Below, piece after piece: positions 12,040-63,480 of a DNA stretch of 64,000 nt. The stretch is from Octopus vulgaris. Its lineage: Eukaryota. The stretch's first letter is position 1. Every line of letters begins with the position of its first letter. The notes under the pieces were generated by a model that saw only the letters and a program-made list of their open reading frames with translations, was not told where the DNA came from and did no database searches. The stretch covers positions 44,392,001-44,456,000 of the forward strand of contig OX597817.1 of NCBI GenBank assembly GCA_951406725.2, given 5' to 3'. A program made the position numbers and the translations under genes.

Positions 12040-13217
12040 TTATGGATATGTTGCAGATACTTATTTTCGATCGCTATTGTCTGCAGTCCTCTTCTGTTCG
12101 TGATTTTCTTCAGCTAAATAAGGCGGCGAGCTAGCAGAATCGTTAGGACGCCGGGCGAAATGCGTAGCCGTATTTCGTCTGCCGCTACGTTCTGAGTTCA
12201 AATTCCACCGAGGTCGACTTTGCCTTTCATCCTTTCGTTGTCGATTAAATAAATACCAGTTACGCACTGGGGTGATTATAATCGACTTAATCCGTTTGTC
12301 TGTCCTTGTTTGTCCTCTCTGTGTTTAGTCCTTTGTGGGTAGTAAAGAAATCGGTATTTCGTCTGCTGCTACGTTCTGAGTTCAAATTCCACCGAGGTCG
12401 ACTTTGCCTTTCACTCTTTCGGGGTCGATAAATTAAGTACCAGTTACGCACTGGGGTCGATGTAATCGACTTAATCCCTTTGTCTGTCCTTGTTTGTCCC
12501 CTCTGGGTGTAGCCCCTTGTGGGCTGTAAAGAAATAGATATTCTTCAGCTAAACTAGAGTTTGAACATAGAATCTTTAAACAATTTGATCTTCTAGTCCA
12601 ACCGAGGGTCTATTACTCCGAAGACGATGGTTTTATCGTTGCAAAGTCTTTAATTATCGAACTAAAGCATTTGTCTCCATAATGCTAGAGTATATCGGAT
12701 CTTTGCCGGAGAGACATAATTTAGATGCTTTAAACTGTACAATTAATTCTACAGATAGCGGGTTTCTATAGTTTGCGTGTAATCTGACGAGAAAGGCTTG
12801 GTTGTGATTACATTAAAGATTACAAACCCGAATAATATTAGAAATAGTTATTCTTCAGTTCTTACAATCGCTCCGAAGTTCGCCCCATCGTTCCTTCAAA
12901 ATAATTTTATAGCAACTCTAAATACATTTTCTGTTATTGCCGTTTGCATTAAATCACGTGCCTCGCTGTATCATGCGTAAACATTATCATGTAAAACAAT
13001 TGCTATTAATGTTAAGAACAGTTAACTTACAAGATGGCCCTATAAATAACGTCCCTACACTGGAAGGAGAGTTAATGATGTCGTTCCATAAAGAAACTGC
13101 AATGAAATCGATAATGATGCTCCAGAGAGTCACAAATCTAGATTCGTATCTCATCAATTCCGAGATAATTCTGTTCATTAAAACCCTTGATTCATGAGAT
13201 TAATTAAACTAAGTCAG
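12040..13217 (+). pseudogene. possible decayed cadherin-repeat coding remnant split by a SINE
   Basis: Across shifting frames and stops: ADTYF...KLEFEHRIFKQFDLLVQ; EYIGSLPER...TINSTD; FAPSFLQNNFIATL; INNVPTL...SFHKE...VTNLDSYLINSEII. The order resembles cadherin repeat motifs. Donor-like CAG|GTGAGG at 13217. Confidence 0.35.
12120..12540 (+). mobile_element. family C SINE dimer (tRNA-like head plus Meta-domain-like core)
   Basis: Head AAGGCGGCGAGCT, B box GTTCAAATTCC, core GACTTTGCCTTTCATCCTTTCGGGGTCGAT...AAGTACC, two units of about 184 nt. TSD TTCTTCAGCTAAA at 12106-12118 and 12541-12553. Confidence 0.9.
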
Positions 13218-18916: not shown

Positions 18917-18964
18917 AAACTATCGGTTCGGTAAGAGGAGTTTGATAACAGTACAAAGCTTAGA

Positions 18965-19382
18965 AAGGCGGCGAGCTGGCAGAAACGTTAGCACGCCGGG
19001 CGAAATGCTTAGAGGTATTTCGTCTGCCGTTACGTTCTGAGTTCAAATTCCGCCGAGGTCGACTTTGCCTTTCATCCTTTCGGGGTCAATTAAATAAGTA
19101 CCAGTTACGCACTGGGATCGATATAATCGACTTAATCCCTTTGTCTGTCCTTGTTTGTCCCCGCTGTGTTTAGCCTCTTGTGGGAAGTAAAGAAATAAGT
19201 ATTTCGTCTGCTGTTACGTTCTGAGTTCAAATTCCGCCGAGTTCGACTTTGCCTTTCATCCTTTCGGGGTCGATAAATTAAGTACCAGTTACGCACTGGG
19301 ATCGATGTAATCAACGTAAACCCCTTTGTCTGTCCTTGTTTGTCCACTCTACGTTTAGCCCCAAGTGGGCAAAAAAGAAATA
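18965..19382 (+). mobile_element. family C SINE dimer nested in a family D SINE
   Basis: Two units. TSD ACAAAGCTTA at 18953-18962 and 19383-19392. Confidence 0.9.
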
Positions 19383-19867
19383 ACAAAGCTTAAACGTTAC
19401 AAATAAGTACTAGGGTTGTTCGACCAGACCCTTTCAGGCGGTGTTCTAGCATGGCTGTAGTCCAATAACTGAAGCAAGTAAAAGATAGAAGAAATATTCC
19501 AATGACATACAGAACAATGACATAATTACTTTTAGTTAACAAATGAAGGCTTACAATTTGAATCCACTCTTAGGCCCTGTAAACGTCTTAGAATTCACCT
19601 TTACAAATTAAAATGCAATTGGAGATTAAACAACTTGAAATGCAGTGTATATATTATAACTACTGGAAATATAGATTGTGCATTAAAACTAATTATCAGG
19701 AATATTCTAATCTTTAATTACAATCCCCATTTCAGAGAGATTTCAATGTATATCTTTGCTAATATACTCAGATTATAAGATCAACAAGATAGTTAATAAG
19801 TAAACATATCTATACATGCATATGTACATGACAAATGCATGCATACATACATACATACATACATACA

Positions 19868-20931: not shown

Positions 20932-21185
20932 GGGTTGTTGATGATGTCATAAACAGCGGTGGATCAACCATTGAGCAAAATATGCACGAGCTTAGGGCGG
21001 CGATAGGGAGAGGCACTAAAGAAATGATTAGTTGTTTACGGCACAAAAGAAATGATTTGAAACTTGTTAAAGTAATATTTCTTGGCATAATGTTAACTCA
21101 GCATGTTACGACGGGCGAAATACCTCTAAGAAACTCGGCCTGTGTGCTAAATGACTCTGCCATATCGCCATCTTCCTTTGCTGCC

Positions 21186-21243
<58 letters not shown>

Positions 21244-21245
<2 letters not shown>

Positions 21246-23530
21246 ACTAGCTAACGTACGAAGATACATTCTCAACGCAAAAAAAATATCAGAAATAGAA
21301 ATAGAACGTCTAAAAGAAAAAATACACCAGGAAAATGTAGATAGAAGCCACACAACAATGCCCGATAATATAAACACTGAAACCGTAAAACACGAAGACA
21401 AACGTAACATTCCCAACAAACACGATGTAAACAAAAAACAACAAACCCAGACCGTAAGGATGCATAATAATACACGACAAACAGCAAGCCAAAACACGGC
21501 AAACAAACATATAAATAAGAAAGAAAGCGGCACAAATCTAAAACCTAGAGACAACAAAGGGGAGCCTAATGATTATGATAATATAAAAAGTAAAATAATC
21601 AAAGAAATGAAAACCACAGAGCTCAAAATGGACCACCGACCATATCTCCCAAAAATCAAAATAGACGAAACAACAACACCAATTATAAACAGCATAAACC
21701 TAGCCGTCACTGAACTAATAGCCACTGAAACAAAAAGCGATATCACTAAGCTAAATGACTTAGTATACGCAGCAGCCACTGCAGCCACAAAAGAAGCTGG
21801 ATACTCACTCAAACCCATCCAAACAGGAGTACCACCACCCAAACAATAAATAACATCCAAAGCAAAATACAAAAAATGAGAAAAGATATGTCGATTCTTA
21901 ATGAAATCAGTAGACAATCAACGCTACTGAGCAACAAAAAGAAAACAAAAATACTCCGCAAATATAACATCACAGAAAAATATTTACATGAGATAAAAGA
22001 AAAGCTGAAGCAAGATATCCTTGCCAAAGCACAAAGGATCCGCCGGTACGAGAAACGCCAACGCTTCTTTGAACAAAACAAAAAGTTCAACTCCAACCCC
22101 AAAAAGTTCTACCAAGAACTTGGCAAAAATAAAAAAGAAATCACTGCAGCACCAACGGTAGAAGAAGTGGAAGAATTCTGGAGAGAAATATGGTCGGCGA
22201 ACGAACAGCCAAAAAAAAAAAAAAAGAAGTATCAAAACAATAAACTCAGCATCTGAGCAACTTTGGACCCCCATAACAACTGAAGAGGTCACCCAGGCAC
22301 TGCAAAGACTAAGCAACTGGAAGGCACCTGGGCATGACAAGATCCCCAACTCCTGGTTGAAATATCTAACAGGAATGCACAAAAAGCTGGCTGAAAACCT
22401 TAACAGTATGCTAGCAGAGCCAGAGACAATGCCTGAATGGCTCACGAAGGGGAAAACCATCTTAATTCCCAAATCAAATGAGACAGCAAAACCAGAAAAC
22501 TACAGACCAATGATCTGTCTCCCTACAATGTACAAGGCATTTACTGCAGTGATATCGCAAAGGTTGAACAAGCACCTGGACGAAAACAACCTGTTTCCAG
22601 AAGAGCAGAAAGGATGCCGCAAAGGCTCATATGGCTGTAAAGATCAACTAATGATTAATAAAGCCATAACTGAAGACAGCCACAGAAAGAAGAAAGGCCT
22701 CAGTATGGCCTGGATCGACTAAAAAAAGGCGTTTGATAGCATCCCCCACACATAGATCCTCGAAACACTAGCCATTAACAAAGTAGCACCAACAATCATA
22801 AAATTCATAGGGCACTCTATGAATAAATGAGAAACAGTGCTACAGCTCCAAACAAAAGAGGGACTCATGAAAACCAAAACCATCCCCATTAGAAGAGGAA
22901 TATTCCAGGGAGACACGCTCTCCCCACTCCCTTTCTGCTTGGCACTGTCACCTCTATCTGATATGCTAAATAGAACTGGATGCGGATATAAATGTTACTC
23001 CAAAACGATCAGCCACCTTTTATATATGGATGACCTAAAACTATACGCTGCAAATGACAAACAGCTGGAAACACTATTGAAGACACACAGATAGAGAAAT
23101 TAAGGCCAACAGACCAGATATGGTTGTCAGAGATCATGAAGAAAAAAAATGCTTTCTAATTGATGTATCAATACCGGCAGATGACAACGTGTCTCTAAAA
23201 GAAATGGAGAAACTTTCAAAATACAAAGACCTGGAAATAGAGGTAACTAGAATGTGGAATCTAAAAACAGAAACAATTCCTATCGTAGTAGGTGCATTAG
23301 GCATGATAAAAAAATATTCAGACAAATACATATCAAAAACACCAGGACTTACAAACACATATAACATACAGAAAATTGCACTACTAGGCACTGCACACAT
23401 CCTACGCAGAACACTTTCCATGCAATAACCATCAGAGCATCACAACAAATCACAGCACATACCTAAGGCACACAGAGCTGCGCTCGGTACTGAAGTGAAA
23501 GCACGCTATAAAAATAAAACTACTGAATGA
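21244..23530 (+). mobile_element. R4/Dong-clade non-LTR retrotransposon (RT plus restriction-like endonuclease), 5'-truncated and inactivated
   Basis: NWKAPGHDKI, PENYRPMICL, EQKGCRKGSYGCKDQL, AWID*KKAFDS, GIFQGDTLSP, YMDD (23023-23034), then RPDMVVRD...LIDVSIP...EKLSKYKDL...LGTAHILRR. Several stops and frameshifts. (AAT)n on both flanks. Confidence 0.92.
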
Positions 23531-28340: not shown

Positions 28341-28382
28341 AATGTCCTGATGAAGGGGTCATAAACCCGAAATATAGAAATT
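28341..28382 (+). ncRNA. minimal type I hammerhead-ribozyme-like fold (C3-G8)
   Basis: AATGTC-CTGATGA-AG-GGG-TCATAAA-CCC-GAAA-TA-TA-GAAATT. Stem I has 5 of 6 pairs. About 65 bp upstream of (TA)n. Confidence 0.6.
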
Positions 28383-33469: not shown

Positions 33470-33599
33470 CAAAATGGGAAAGAACGCAAAACATCCGGAC
33501 AATTAGGTGATACAAAAATGGGACAACAAAACATCCAGATAGACGATACAAACAAAACAAGGACGAGTCATTCGAAGTCACTCTTTTTCCTCCGCTCGT

Positions 33600-34042
33600 C
33601 GTCCATAAAAAATTCTTCGTTTGTAATACTTTTTTTCGTTCGGCGTCAAGAGCCCTTTTTATCTTGTTTTGCTTGTCCTGTCTTATACTGTTTACAATTT
33701 GCACTGTCGTTACTGTCCTGTTGTTACTATTTTTTACCCCTCTGCGAAAAGATCTCAGAATTTTAATTGATTTGCTTTTCGCAGGAAGGAAAGTTTTCTT
33801 GTCGAAGATACGTCTCGCTTTTATCCTTCGAAACGTAGAGTAGATGAAAGCTTTAGCGACTGAAGAAGGGTATTTTTCTTTGTGTTAATTGTCCTGTATT
33901 CTATATTTTTGTTGTTTTTAAATATATGTCCAGTTCCTTTGTGTCTATGTTTTCGTTTCTCATTGTGTTCGACGTCCTTTGGTGTCCTGTACTCATATAT
34001 GCGTGTATATGTACATGTAGAGGTAGGTAACGCACGCACCCA

Positions 34043-37747: not shown

Positions 37748-38528
37748 ATTTCTTTATTGCCCACAGGGGTCTAAACACAGAGGGGACAAACAAAGTGATT
37801 AAGTCGATTAGATCGACCCCAGATCGTAACTGGTACTTATTTAATTGACCCTGAAAGGATGAAAGGCGAAGTCAAGCTCGGCGGAATGTGAACTCAAAAC
37901 GTAACGGCAGACGAAATACCTATTTTACTGCCCACAAGGGGCTAAACACAGAGGGGACAAACAAGGACATATGCATTCATGGAGAAGAACGATATTTTCC
38001 CCATTGAACAAAAAGGGTGCCGCCGAGGCTCATACGGATGCAAAGATCAACTGCTAATTAATCGTATGATCCTTGAGAACTGTCACAACAAGCGCAGAAA
38101 TTTCAGCTCCGCATGGATTGACTATGAAAAGTCCTTCGACAGTATACCGTAATCATGGATCTTGAAATCGCTGGACATCTTCAAAATTTCCCCTATGATT
38201 TCAAGCTTCCTGAAGCATAATATGTCGTTGTGGAATACGAATCTCCAATTATACCACTCTAATGGAGTACTTGCCTCAGAGAATATAAACATCAACTGTG
38301 GAATTTTTCAAGGTGACTCACTTTCACCTTTAATATTCTGCATAGCCCTAATGCCCCTTACAAGTGAATTAAACAGAACAGGATATGGGTATAAAATTTA
38401 AAAAAAAAAAAAAGCCATCTATTTTATATGGCTGACTTAAAACTCTCGGCGGAATTTGAACTCAGAACGTAGCGGCAGACGAAATACCGCTAAGCATTTC
38501 GCCCGGCGTGCTCGCGATTCTGCCAACT
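37748..38528 (-). mobile_element. family C SINE dimer interrupted by a LINE fragment
   Basis: SINE sequence at 37748-37968 and 38444-38528. Confidence 0.85.
37969..38445 (+). mobile_element. R4/Dong-type RT internal fragment (second subfamily)
   Basis: FPIEQKGCRRGSYGCKDQLLIN...AWIDYEKSFDSIP*...GIFQGDSLSPLIFC...GYGYKI...YMADLKL. Confidence 0.9.
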
Positions 38529-38738
38529 AGTGTGTTTATATGTGTGTTTGTATGTGTGTGTATGTGTGTGTGTGTCTGTAAGTATGTATGCATATATATA
38601 TACACACGCGCATGCATGTACGCACACACACACACACACACATATAATCAATTGAAATAAACGAATAAAGTTGACAGACAGCAAGAAGAATGTACACTCG
38701 GAATGTATTAGTTTGACGCTCAGTGTATAAAGAAGGAG

Positions 38739-38771
38739 TCTGACGTTTCGAGCATAGCTCTTCGTCGGAAA
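38739..38771 (-). ncRNA. minimal hammerhead-like fold of PLE type
   Basis: Minus strand: TTT-CCGACGA-A-GAGC-TAT-GCTC-GAAA-CG-TC-AGA. U4 is C and stem I is short. Lies in a repeat (38650-38835) with a related fragment at 57610-57680. Confidence 0.55.
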
Positions 38772-38839
38772 GGAGAAAGAGAAACGTCTGAAGAAGTAAA
38801 AGAAATCGCCAACAACACGTGTGTAGTTACATTGTATAG

Positions 38840-39320
38840 ATACATTTATATATGGCGAACAAGGGTGTGGAGTGGAGTGAAAGAGTTTGAAGAGGACAGG
38901 ATAATGCATGCAAAACTGAAGAGAGATTTCAAGAAGAATGTTACGACCGAGAAGGTGAATCACAATGAACTTTTTGTTTGCACGGTTTGTGACAGACCAT
39001 GCCTTTCTTTTGCTGGGCTCAAATCTCATTTCCAAACCCATAGAAAACGAACCTCCACCAACTATTCTGCCTATATATCTGTGCACACCTTTCAGAAGGT
39101 TTGTAAATCTAACGGAGGCCTCAAAAGACATTTTAAGATCCACAAAGATCATAACTTATCTGCGGCTCTTGGTCGTCCAAATTGGAGGTGCAATCTATGT
39201 GGGCTGTCTTTTCAAAACATTGTCTGGTTTTAAAAGCTACATCAGATGCTGTGATGGTTCGAAGGTGTCAGTACAGGAGGTGGTCAAACTCTGCATAATG
39301 AGTAGACAACCACCAAGTAT
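38840..39320 (+). mobile_element. RTE LINE 3' end with three C2H2-like fingers and a (TATG)n tail
   Basis: WRTRVWSGVKEFEEDR...CTVCDRPCLSFAGLKSHFQTH...KVCKSNGGLKRHFKIH...CNLCGL, then a short UTR and (TATG)n at 39317-39420. Confidence 0.8.
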
Positions 39321-39689: not shown

Positions 39690-40028
39690 TTGGTTTCATT
39701 GTCCTGTTTTTATTCTTTAAGTGTACTGCATTTTTATTTGTATTGCTTTTAGGTCCTGTTCTTGTCACTTTTTTTCTTTCCTTGTTTTACCCCTCTGCAT
39801 AAGAATTTTATTTAATTCTTTTGCAAGAAGGACTGCTTCGACCGGATCGTGTTCTGTCCTTACCTTCGAAACACGCATTGAGTCGAACCAGGGACAGCTG
39901 ATGAAGGGGAATATTCCTTGTATTGTTTGTCTTGTACTCTGTTTTTTCGTTGTTAAAAAAAGTCCGTCTCCTAGTTTGTTTTTATGTTTTCGTTTTTCAT
40001 TGTGTTCGTTTATTTGTGGTGTCCTGTA

Positions 40029-40074
<46 letters not shown>

Positions 40075-40195
40075 TGTATATATACATATAGATGTAGGTA
40101 CGTACATATATGTATGTATGTATATATTTTATTTATTAAATTATTATATGACTGAGCGCCCTCGCGTCGTTTCGTTTCTATTCTCCAAGTAACTT
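39690..40195 (+). mobile_element. (TA)n-associated repeat with a hammerhead-like multi-stem (copy 2)
   Basis: Homologous to 33600-34045. Confidence 0.6.
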
Positions 40196-54802: not shown

Positions 54803-55219
54803 AAGGCGGCGAGCTGGCAAGAACGTTAGCGCGCCGGGCGAAATGTGTAGCTGTATTTCGTCTGCCGTTACGTTCTGAGTTCAATTTCCGCTGAGGTCGA
54901 CTTTGCCGTTCATCCTTTCGGGGTCGATAAATTAAGTACCAGTTACGCACTGGGGTCGATGAAATCGACTTAATACGTTTCTCTGTCCTTGTTTGTCCCC
55001 TCTGTGTTTAACCTCTTGTGGGTAGTAAAGAAATAGGTATTTCGTCTGCCGCTACGTTCTGAGTTCAAATTCCGTCGAGGTCGACTTTGCCTTTCATCCT
55101 TTCGGGGCCGATAAATTAAGTACCAGTTACGCACTGGGGTCGATGAAATCGACTTAATCCGTTTGTCTGTCCTTGTTTGTCCTCTTTATGTTTAGCCCCT
55201 TGTGAGCAATGAAGAAATA
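54803..55219 (+). mobile_element. family C SINE dimer
   Basis: TSD ATATAAATAATGGCTCGTC at 54784-54802 and 55220-55238. Confidence 0.92.
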
Positions 55220-55667
55220 ATATAAATAATGGCTCGTCGGATACGTTGGTTTTGAAATATGTAAGACCATGCGGTAGTTCGGACTGAGACTTTGCTTAAA
55301 ATTCACTTTGTTGTAATGTCTCTCATTATAAAATAAAGACAAAATGAAAACTGACGTGTTTGTAGTCATTGTGTTACATGTTCTCATAACAAGAAATTTA
55401 AATGGCAACTGGCCAATCTCAACGAGCAGAATCACTCCAGTGTGCATGCCTAGTCGCTATTAGTAACTGTCTATCATCTTATTTTTCTTTAGACATTCGC
55501 ATTCCAGCTGTTTTACAAGGTTCATTTATTTTACAAATTGTGATGATCTTCACTCTGATGGTTCCTGTTTCAGACGTCTCCCAGAAACATGATTGACAAC
55601 GTAAATATAGTCTACAAGTTTAAGATAATACTTATTGACTTATTTATTTTGTCTATTTTATTTGCAG

Positions 55668-59457: not shown

Positions 59458-60015
59458 CGGGTTTCAAATTTTGGCACAAGGCCGAAATTTTAGGGGAGGG
59501 GATGAGTCGATTTCATCGACCCGAGTGTTCAACTGGTACTTATTTTATCGACCCCGAAAGGATGAAAGGTAAAGTCAACTTCAGCGAAATTAAAACTCAG
59601 AACGTAAAGACAGACGAAATACCTATTTCTTTACTACCCACAAGGTGCTAAACACAGAGAGGACAAACAAGCACAGACAAACAGATTAAGTCGATTTCAT
59701 CGACCCCAGTGAGTAACTGGTACTAAATTTATCGACCCCGAAAGGATGAAAGGCAAAGTCGATCTCGGCGGAATTTGAACTCAGAACGTAAAGACAGACG
59801 AAATACCTATTTCTTTACTACCCACAAGGGGCTAAACACAGAGAGGACAAACAAACACAGACAAACGGATTAAGTCGATTACATCGACCTCAGTGAAAAC
59901 TGGTACTTAATTTATCGACCCCGAAAGGATGAAAGGCAAAGTCCACCTCAGCGGAATTTGAACTCAGTACATAACGGCAGACGAAATACGGCTACGCATT
60001 TCGCCCGGGCTACTA
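59458..60015 (-). mobile_element. family C SINE trimer
   Basis: Three cores with a period of 184 nt (junctions at 59616 and 59800). The last unit ends in the alternative tail. Confidence 0.9.
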
Positions 60016-60415
60016 ACGATAATAAAAATAACAAATACAATAAAAAAAATAACACAAAAAGAAAAAAAGACAAAACAATAACACGCTGCTAATCAAGGAA
60101 AATCTTGAGCAAATCCACTGGCACCTTCTCTTTCCCAGTGAGAGCTCGTGGCACGAAATATTAGAAGCATACGTGTAATCTATAGAGAACGACCTAAACT
60201 GGGGTTCAGACAAAATATGATAAAAAAGACATGATCAGTACAATGTGTTTGTGAAAACCTAGAGCTTATTCTTCCCTAATCTACAATCACCCACACATTA
60301 ATTAGCCCTATCCTCTCCAACACCATTATGAGCACTACATCATTTGCACAATGAGGAAGTTATTGTAACATTATTGCCAGTTTCATTTTCAATTTCTTTT
60401 AGTATTTTAGATAGT

Positions 60416-62434: not shown

Positions 62435-62837
62435 AAGGCAGCGAGCTGGCGGAAACGTTAGCACGCCGGGCGAAATGCTTAGCGGTATTTCGCCTGCCGT
62501 TATGTTCTGAGTTCAAATTCCGCAGAGGTCGATTTTGCCTTCCATCCTTTCGGGGTCGATAAATTAAGTATCAGTTACGGACTGGGGTCGATATAATCGA
62601 CTTAAATCGTCTGTCTGTCCTTGTTTGTCTCCTGTGTTTAGCCCCTTGTGGGTAGTAAAGAAATATGTATTTCGTCTGCCGTTACGTTCTGAGTTCAAAC
62701 TCCGCCGAGGTCGACTTTGCCTCTCATCCTTTCGGGGTCAATATATTAAGTACCAGTTACGCACTGGGGTCGATCTAATCGACTTAGTTCCTTTGTTTGT
62801 CCCCTCTATTTAGCCCCTTGTGGCCATTAAAGAAATA
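62435..62837 (+). mobile_element. family C SINE dimer
   Basis: Two units, junction at 62660-62673. Confidence 0.9.
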
Positions 62838-63480
62838 AGAAGGCTTTCCTCACAAATCACTGATGTGCTCAGTAGTCTATCGTAGTCCGAAAAAGATGTT
62901 TCAGCAATTTTTGCCGAACAAACTACACAAATGATTCATTTATAGTGATGGAATGTTTGTGCCATACATTACCTTATTCACTCCGCAAAATCGATTTTTC
63001 CTGAAAAGGTGCACTGTGTACCGCAAGTCTGGTGTCGAAGTGATCGCAGACCAGCGTGAGATGAAGTGTTCTGCTCAAAACTACAATCACCATCCGGTCC
63101 AGGAATTGAAATCACGACCTCGCGATCGTAAGTTTAACAACCTACCCATTTGTCCATGAGAAATCACACACCCAAATTATATAAACAATGCCTTTACTCT
63201 TCTCGTATTCAGCGCAACGTAAACTGTACAATGTTTGAATTTGTTTCAGTTCTTTCGAATTACACAATATAATGTATGGGTGTTTGTGTGTATATACGTG
63301 TGTGTGGATTTGTGTGTGTATGTATGCATAGTTTTAAAAAGAGACACAGAACATATAGTATTTTATGCTTTTTAAAACTTACAACTGTTTCGGGATTGCA
63401 TAATTTCTGGTTGAAACACATAATCTTATTAAGCCTTCTCATTATCATTGTTTATCCAAAGATAAAGACAATGGTGTTAA

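Follow-up and report, generated by a model that had tools for sequence, protein, structure and literature searches.

A candidate hammerhead ribozyme with a predicted split core in a high-copy animal repeat and in Naiad retroelements

Two diverged sites on the plus strand of the window (the whole 64,000-nucleotide stretch of microsatellite-rich, AT-rich eukaryotic DNA, probably of a cephalopod, analyzed here) carry the words of a hammerhead ribozyme in an unusual arrangement, which raises the question of whether they form a hammerhead and, if so, of which type. The initial annotation had described a hammerhead-like RNA with hairpin A in the place usually held by CUGANGA and the CUGANGA box displaced downstream, and had suggested a permuted, switchable, or trans-assembling hammerhead. 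All the features that it named in the two copies (33735-33872 and 39788-39910) were found on the plus strand where it had placed them, including hairpin A in the usual CUGANGA position. Literature is cited below by PMC identifier.

Two copies of a hammerhead core and their repeat

Both copies contain the complete core C3-U-G-A-N-G-A9, G12-A-A-A15.1, U16.1, and H17. The cleavage strand, with GUC in copy 1 and GUU in copy 2, sits within the loop of what the initial annotation called hairpin B. Its partners are the bases after GAAA, which give stem III, and the bases before CUGANGA, which give stem I. Stems I, II, and III adjoin the core with the pairs A15.1-U16.1 and G10.1-C11.1 and comprise 5, 6, and 5 pairs in copy 1 and 8, 5, and 5 pairs in copy 2. 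Stem I (5 bp in copy 1 and 6 to 8 bp in copy 2) forms as a pseudoknot, and the earlier statement that no convincing stem I can be drawn no longer holds. A nested stem I is absent, which rules out type I and type II hammerhead readings. The blocks follow each other in the order S-G-C in both copies (Table 1) with stems I and III paired, in agreement with the proposal of a permuted hammerhead. Helix x, which bridges stems I and II (8 pairs in copy 1 and 6 in copy 2), hairpin A, and the closing helix P-a complete the set, counted as seven helices with the core junction that they frame. The linker from stem I to stem II measures 4 to 5 nt and 1 to 3 nt in the window copies, against 0 to 8 nt in type SGC, and the strands of stems III and I are spaced by 17 nt in copy 1 and 14 nt in copy 2, against a type-SGC limit of 15 nt.

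Table 1. Features of the two copies and of the adjoining repeat
Copy	Feature	Positions	Strand	Details
1	TACCCCT	33735-41	+	sequence motif
1	P-a (closing helix), 5' arm	33737-33741	+	pairs with 33867-33871, 4 Watson-Crick
1	Hairpin A	33742-33784	+	arms 33742-51/33775-84, 10/10 Watson-Crick pairs
1	Displaced stem II 5' strand	33785-33790	+	6 Watson-Crick pairs with 33824-33829; G33785 is position 10.1
1	Helix x (stem I-stem II bridge), 5' arm	33791-33798	+	with 33846-33853, 7 Watson-Crick + 1 G.U
1	Block S	33809-33819	+	stem III strand 33809-13, GUC 33812-14, stem I strand 33815-19; 5 + 5 Watson-Crick pairs (stem III with 33833-37, stem I with 33855-59); predicted cut after 33814
1	Block G	33824-33837	+	stem II 3' strand 33824-29, GAAA 33830-33, stem III strand 33833-37
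1	3' part	33846-33872	+	helix x 3' arm, stem I strand 33855-59, CUGAAGA 33860-66, P-a 3' arm
1	Purine tail after CUGAAGA	33867-72	+	sequence motif
1	T-rich 3' tail	33873-33995	+	ends at (TA)n-type microsatellite; covered in all four runs
2	TACCCCT	39788-94	+	sequence motif
2	P-a 5' arm and hairpin A	39790-39826	+	P-a 39790-94, 5/5 pairs with 39905-09; hairpin A 39795-826, 11/13 paired (39795-807/39814-26), junction pair a C.A mismatch
2	Displaced stem II strand and helix x 5' arm	39827-39842	+	39827-31 (5 Watson-Crick), 39837-42 (6 Watson-Crick)
2	Block S	39848-39861	+	stem III strand 39848-52 (5 pairs with 39871-75), GUU 39851-53, stem I strand 39854-61 (8 pairs with 39890-97, 7 Watson-Crick + 1 G.U); predicted cut after 39853
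2	Block G	39863-39875	+	stem II 3' strand 39863-67, GAAA 39868-71, stem III strand
2	3' part	39882-39910	+	helix x 39882-87, stem I 39890-97, CUGAUGA 39898-904, P-a 39905-09
2	Purine tail after CUGAUGA	39905-10	+	sequence motif
2	T-rich 3' tail	39911-40031	+	ends at (TA)n
	A-rich high-copy block upstream of copy 1	33470-33585	.	highest summed depth, above the ribozyme part

The initial annotation had named an absence of covariation, or a resolution into two ordinary tandem hammerheads, as evidence against its reading. When the stems are compared pair by pair going outward from the core, pairing is kept between the copies through two-sided changes (4/5 in stem I and 3/4 in stem III) with no one-sided change, and the single CUGANGA of each copy rules out two ordinary hammerheads in tandem. 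The letters of the hairpin B loop differ, as had been noted; the loop as a whole does not "differ entirely," since its pairings are kept.

A generic descriptor covering six block orders, run on both strands of the 64-kb window, matched these two sites only, with no match on the minus strand; 30 block-wise dinucleotide shuffles gave none. When the descriptor was extended to stems I, II, and III, the closing helix, and hairpin A, this fuller version matched only the two window sites and none of 190 control loci, all of which carry both core words. The controls came from pattern scans of viral contigs (2 loci and at least 118, the latter from 21 of 64 parts scanned) and metagenomes (70), and the best partial fits among them looked like chance. 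When the core was fixed and the rest shuffled, the fuller descriptor matched 3 of 20,000 sequences for copy 1 and 0 of 20,000 for copy 2. Hairpin A of copy 1 is present in the minimum-energy fold; pseudoknot-free folding also gives competing helices, such as 33817-25 with 33843-51 in copy 1. Among the best 150 of 225 Rfam matches at E ≤ 1 no hammerhead family was found, all of them being microsatellite look-alikes. Judged from these sequence comparisons, the predicted fold is very probably real.

Every helix closes inside one copy, with 4 to 11 pairs, which removes the need for the trans assembly that had been suggested. A motif active exclusively in trans, or as a dimer formed by tandem terminal repeats, would be in keeping with the dimeric hammerheads that are the norm in metazoan Penelope-like elements (PMC4209133). 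The stem III arms of copy 1 are near-palindromic, and in tandem or circular RNA block C and the 5' part of the next unit could pair to give a CSG-like order. However, the stem III arms of copy 2 are not palindromic, and the window copies lie 6 kb apart with noncomplementary stem I arms, so that we regard a purely trans or dimeric motif as most improbable.

The two copies belong to a longer repeat. Their 3' flanks are 74% identical (33860-34019 versus 39898-40056, E value of 8e-21), they have a T-rich 3' tail in common (75% identity over 144 bases), and a (TA)n tract terminates the repeat in both. In four sequencing runs, 4,855, 2,949, 1,804, and 14 contigs were placed on the element, which is therefore a high-copy repeat. 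It is contained in 20 of the 24 sequencing runs listed, with six organism labels and one small metagenome share, and at most 0.21 of its words are present in the runs guessed to be RNA. Between the copies lie unrelated repeats, namely, microsatellite sequence, repeats resembling SINEs, and remnants of a different reverse transcriptase, and this DNA was ruled out as the open reading frame (ORF) of the element.

Two minor features adjoin the repeat. The A-rich block upstream of copy 1 may be a fragment of a related element in inverted orientation. As for a tandem or inverted pseudo-LTR arrangement of the Naiad kind (see below), the likeness of this block to the inverted tail is weak, with 7 of 300 shuffles equally good, and the 6 kb between the copies is unrelated sequence. 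A short purine-rich word, similar in both copies, lies about 25 to 60 bases into the (TA)n flank (34020-34030 and 40089-40100) and could be an optional Penelope "tail."

Source of the stem II strand

In the hammerhead class A9 is joined to position 10.1 with 0 to 2 inserted bases. Here A9 enters another helix instead, and the 5' half of stem II is located about 75 nt further upstream. It is the upstream GAAGG that pairs perfectly with the bases in front of GAAA, beginning with the canonical G10.1-C11.1; this helix, the stem of hairpin B, is stem II in the proposed fold. P-a forms between the 5' CCCCU and the bases that follow A9. P-a, hairpin A, and stem II are contiguous; copy 1 has no spacer between them, and copy 2 has one mismatch. 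Together with the core A9.G12 pair they are predicted to frame a four-way junction, of which hairpin A of copy 1, adjoining P-a and stem II, is the second arm. Because stem II and P-a have the same letters in both window copies, these two copies alone cannot prove that the upstream strand is stem II.

Alternatively, the motif could be a normal type-SGC hammerhead carrying one additional A, in which the G-run behind CUGANGA supplies stem II and the upstream helices act as an off-switch that has to open. In the type-SGC descriptor block C is contiguous, CUGAUGA(U)G being followed by the stem II strand, and SGC ribozymes have an extra base at this place (PMC10085705). The G-run of the window family can indeed pair with the bases before GAAA as G-C, G.U, G.U, and then G-C or a mismatch. 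As a duplex, however, this stem II has a computed energy of 0.0 and +1.8 kcal/mol. The scaffold of P-a, hairpin A, and upstream stem II reaches -21.1 kcal/mol in copy 1 and -20.6 kcal/mol in copy 2, against -9.2 and -10.4 kcal/mol for the alternative, in which hairpin A is combined with a stem II drawn from what follows CUGANGA; these energies cover nested parts only and exclude pseudoknots. In six other lineages, described below, the corresponding helix has no more than 2 pairs, versus 4 to 6 with the upstream strand, and we consider the switched type-SGC reading very unlikely.

The same data bear on the "switchable" tail of the initial annotation, described there as able to pair with either TACCCCT or CCTT. 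This second partner is weak (1 to 2 G-C pairs plus 2 G.U pairs) and occurs only in the window family, since none of the six other lineages offers more than 2 pairs; the data do not support switching as a general feature of the fold.

The position of helix x also argues for the upstream strand as the genuine stem II strand. Helix x connects the 3' flank of that strand with the bases on the 5' side of stem I, and the interaction helix between stems I and II that was shown to be required in SGC ribozymes is located there (PMC10085705).

We looked at variation within the window family in the contigs of the four runs, which are short, unphased, at least 80% alike, and biased to close relatives. Of 41 substitutions 40 were listed, and the core, stems I and II, the hairpin A stem, and the 5' arm of P-a are free of these 40; 12 of 27 indels and 24 of 446 loose ends were listed. 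G at 33871, the family majority at 80 to 100% of depth in the four runs, would restore a fifth P-a pair in copy 1 and also fits the alternative G-run register, while T at 33872 (17 to 57% of depth) lengthens P-a only. TT at 33837-38 reaches about 30% of depth in runs X2 and X5 and is absent in X8; it disrupts the outermost pair of stem III, and a change of the partner is not among the variants listed. In helix x, G33850C stands at 36 to 84% of depth and deletions occur at 33792-97, both unphased. Unphased loose ends with C at 33819 (7 contigs in X2) and G at 33855 (5 in X5 and 1 in X11) hint at a change of the outer stem I pair from U-A to C-G and are not counted as evidence.

Occurrence in Naiad consensus sequences

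Naiads are Penelope-like elements that target (TA)n and were reported to be without canonical hammerheads, with occasional, unexplained "HHR_core" or "HHR_half_core" words in their 3' untranslated regions (UTRs) (PMC8557442). We parsed by eye the 62 CUGANGA places displayed for 54 Naiad consensus sequences in File S5 of that study, together with three whole file parts; this reading misses CUGANGA words split by a line break.

The window-type fold, with the same order of helices and different letters, was recognized by eye at the 3' ends of 9 of the 54 consensus sequences, which span six lineages and four phyla. All helices are present in the near-identical coral sequences Naiad_Amil, Naiad_Aacu, and Naiad_Anas (one lineage), one Clytia family named by file order, Naiad-2_Movir of a box jellyfish, Naiad_Plae of an acanthocephalan, Naiad_EuTe of a clam shrimp, and the near-identical Naiad_Obim and Naiad_Ovul of octopus (one lineage), the last two with a P-a of 3 pairs followed by a mismatch. 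Two further sequences fit partially: Bfor, of a ctenophore, has a stem I of 2 pairs, and in Esco, of a squid, stems I and III and helix x are sound and the rest has decayed.

In all six lineages the 5' strand of stem II comes from upstream, in the same place as 33785-33790 of the window by visual comparison, and forms 4 to 6 pairs starting with G-C. The letters of stem II covary across Naiads, as judged by eye (GGCCCC/GGGGCC in Naiad_Plae). The bases after CUGANGA form at most 2 pairs with the stem II strand and instead pair with the 5' end; the first pair of this P-a is A-U, C-G, U-A, and once U.U. Between P-a, hairpin A, and stem II there are 0 to 1 unpaired bases, and helix x, again parsed by eye, has 5 to 10 pairs. 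Every helix changes its letters across the six lineages and the window copies, while the catalytic bases, A15.1-U16.1, G10.1-C11.1, and a non-G at the cut are kept in all of them. This pattern, with the core kept while the helices change letters, fits selection for catalysis.

Six of the 54 consensus sequences, all of nematodes, fit a plain type CSG: Nbra-1, -2, and -3 and, by file order, those of Pristionchus, Heligmosomoides or Haemonchus, and Ascaris. Their bridging helices have 9 to 16 bp, and one sequence has an extra U after A9. A non-circular hammerhead is thus found in 17 of the 54 consensus sequences. Neither form was seen in the other 37, which include a crab family of 37,000 copies and, as far as they are displayed, the bivalve and hemichordate families. 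Five of the eight "half-core" cases fit a non-circular fold (Nbra-3, Ovul, Esco in part, and, by file order, Parc and Hpol), and the remaining three (Smim, Dst-3, and Dst-4) are unparsed.

Among the CUGANGA places, 37 looked like coding or chance words and eight fit no form, namely, Skow-2 and seven from parts 16 to 19 of the file. By file order, these seven come from spiders, horseshoe crab, or ostracod, and in most of them a run of C precedes CUGANGA within the loop of a hairpin; they are possibly a further rearrangement. Naiad-1_Skow and a bivalve 3' end have a different 3' motif in common that lacks CUGANGA.

The shared fold is what links the window element to Naiads, and we think it quite likely that it is a Naiad-type Penelope-like retroelement with the ribozyme in its 3' end. 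Its (TA)n ends and high copy number also agree with Naiads. A Naiad ORF, with an N-terminal GIY-YIG endonuclease and a C-terminal reverse transcriptase, was absent among the 12 of 102 window ORFs scanned, and the copies may be truncated or nonautonomous. Three words specific to the window family gave no match in the supplement of PMC8557442, where line breaks may mask matches.

Known hammerheads, activity, and possible role

The closest known relatives are the type-SGC hammerheads (HRIMA-1 and its variants), with which the window form shares the S-G-C order, the full core, and the pseudoknotted core, and, with validated members, a short linker between stems I and II (1 to 6 nt) and a helix bridging them (PMC10085705). 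The S-G-C order is a non-circular permutation in the terms of that study. In contrast to type SGC, block C of the window form is split by a four-way junction, and the window form is a high-copy animal repeat. Eckert, Friedrich, Weinberg, and Weinberg (2023) assumed that block C is never interrupted by more than 1 to 2 bases, which gives six permutations, and their RefSeq search, which used this contiguous block C, recovered neither SGC nor CSG from the genomes of known organisms; type CSG came from two metagenome sequences only (PMC10085705). As the A9/10.1 contiguity rule of the six published permutations fails here, we do not file the window form as type SGC. Its cyclic block order is identical to that of type CSG, which the nematode Naiads fit outright, bridging helix included. 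It differs in that the cycle is opened between A9 and 10.1 and two helices are added.

The place in the 3' UTR, the core words, and the (TA)n targets agree with the "HHR_core" notes of Craig, Yushenova, Rodriguez, and Arkhipova (2021), who in contrast reported no canonical hammerhead and no fitting structure (PMC8557442). The minimal hammerheads of Penelope-like elements are of type I order and dimer dependent, with a stunted palindromic stem III (Cervera and de la Pena 2014, PMC4209133), unlike the window form, which has a full stem III and a non-circular order. In the literature consulted, to which most subscription papers do not belong, we came across neither the split fold, nor an animal hammerhead of type SGC or CSG, nor a Naiad hammerhead that had been parsed. 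A 2026 retrozyme preprint names Naiads only as a clade in the portions available, and the available portions of PMC3088659, PMC10162972, PMC3376415, and PMC13725137 contain no helix inserted at A9/10.1.

We read the element as a complete hammerhead core in S-G-C order, whose stem II receives its 5' strand from an upstream position and is joined to A9 through a predicted four-way junction; on sequence grounds it is likely to be self-cleaving. For the family as a whole we would expect self-cleavage with good confidence; for the two decayed window copies the chances of activity appear even, and the C.A mismatch at the junction and the GUU site are points against copy 2. We know of no hammerhead with a broken A9-10.1 bond that has been shown to work in the literature consulted for comparison.

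The core would fold as in other hammerheads and would be cut after 33814 or 39853. A hammerhead cut leaves a 2',3'-cyclic phosphate and a 5'-OH. From hammerhead structure we infer that A9.G12 would stack on the G10.1-C11.1 pair of the stem II supplied from upstream and that P-a would stack on hairpin A, with helix x doing the job of the contact between stems I and II. The insert would occupy the A9/10.1 bond, a site at which natural hammerheads carry a bulged base, both in type SGC (PMC10085705) and in Penelope-like elements (PMC4209133).

The fold may also be real and non-cutting, as a hammerhead-derived binding or priming signal for the reverse transcriptase of the element. The core could be distorted by the loss of the A9-10.1 link, in vitro cleavage by minimal Penelope hammerheads is poor (PMC4209133), and one element was able to do without cleavage in vitro (PMC11167929). 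Against this stands the retention of the catalytic bases in six lineages and both copies while the helices change letters, and we consider a non-cutting scaffold unlikely.

A self-cleaving split form could have arisen by circular permutation of a type-CSG ribozyme of the nematode Naiad kind, opened at A9/10.1, as tandem terminal repeats would allow. If the RNA is circularized and the insert shrunk, the C-S-G cycle results, so one circular permutation, in either direction, relates both forms.

The ribozyme might serve in the processing of read-through or tandem transcripts. The 5' product would keep the arms of P-a, stem II, helix x, and stem III, and four helices would clamp the products, giving a nick with no release; such a clamped nick could favor religation or the processing of tandem transcript ends. 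In a lizard Penelope-like element, insertion in vitro did not depend on hammerhead cleavage, and RNA ends did not map to the cut (PMC11167929). A role in transposition is therefore tentative, at slightly less than an even chance, and together with processing it is the weakest step of our proposal, given the dispensable cleavage in lizard and the many Naiads without the motif.

Taken together, the window form is probably an active seventh hammerhead topology outside the six, found in Naiads of at least four animal phyla and probably numbering thousands of copies in a genome. Together with the CSG forms of nematodes, it would provide the first non-circularly permuted ribozymes of animal genomes. 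If this is true, two published statements would fall, that block C is uninterruptible with only six permutations possible and that Naiads are without hammerheads, and non-circular permutations would move from anonymous metatranscriptome RNAs to animal genomes. CSG in nematodes and the split form elsewhere would then be a natural series for the rewiring of an RNA fold, and the A9/10.1 bond would be a new insertion site for ribozyme engineering, able to carry whole helices.

Elsewhere in the window there are scraps of ordinary minimal type I hammerheads of the Penelope type at 28347 (+), 38768 (-), and 25711 (-), two of them with an extra A after A9 and one with CCGACGA. Broken reverse transcriptase pieces of another retroelement lie at 37946-38401 (RVT_1, E value of 0.003) and 21151-22722 (2e-7), and C2H2 zinc-finger traces at 38712-39233. 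An abundant repeat with units of about 184 bases, 85 to 90% alike, forms short tandem arrays at 12112-12542, 18957-19391, 54803-55223, 59497-60020, and 62435-62846.
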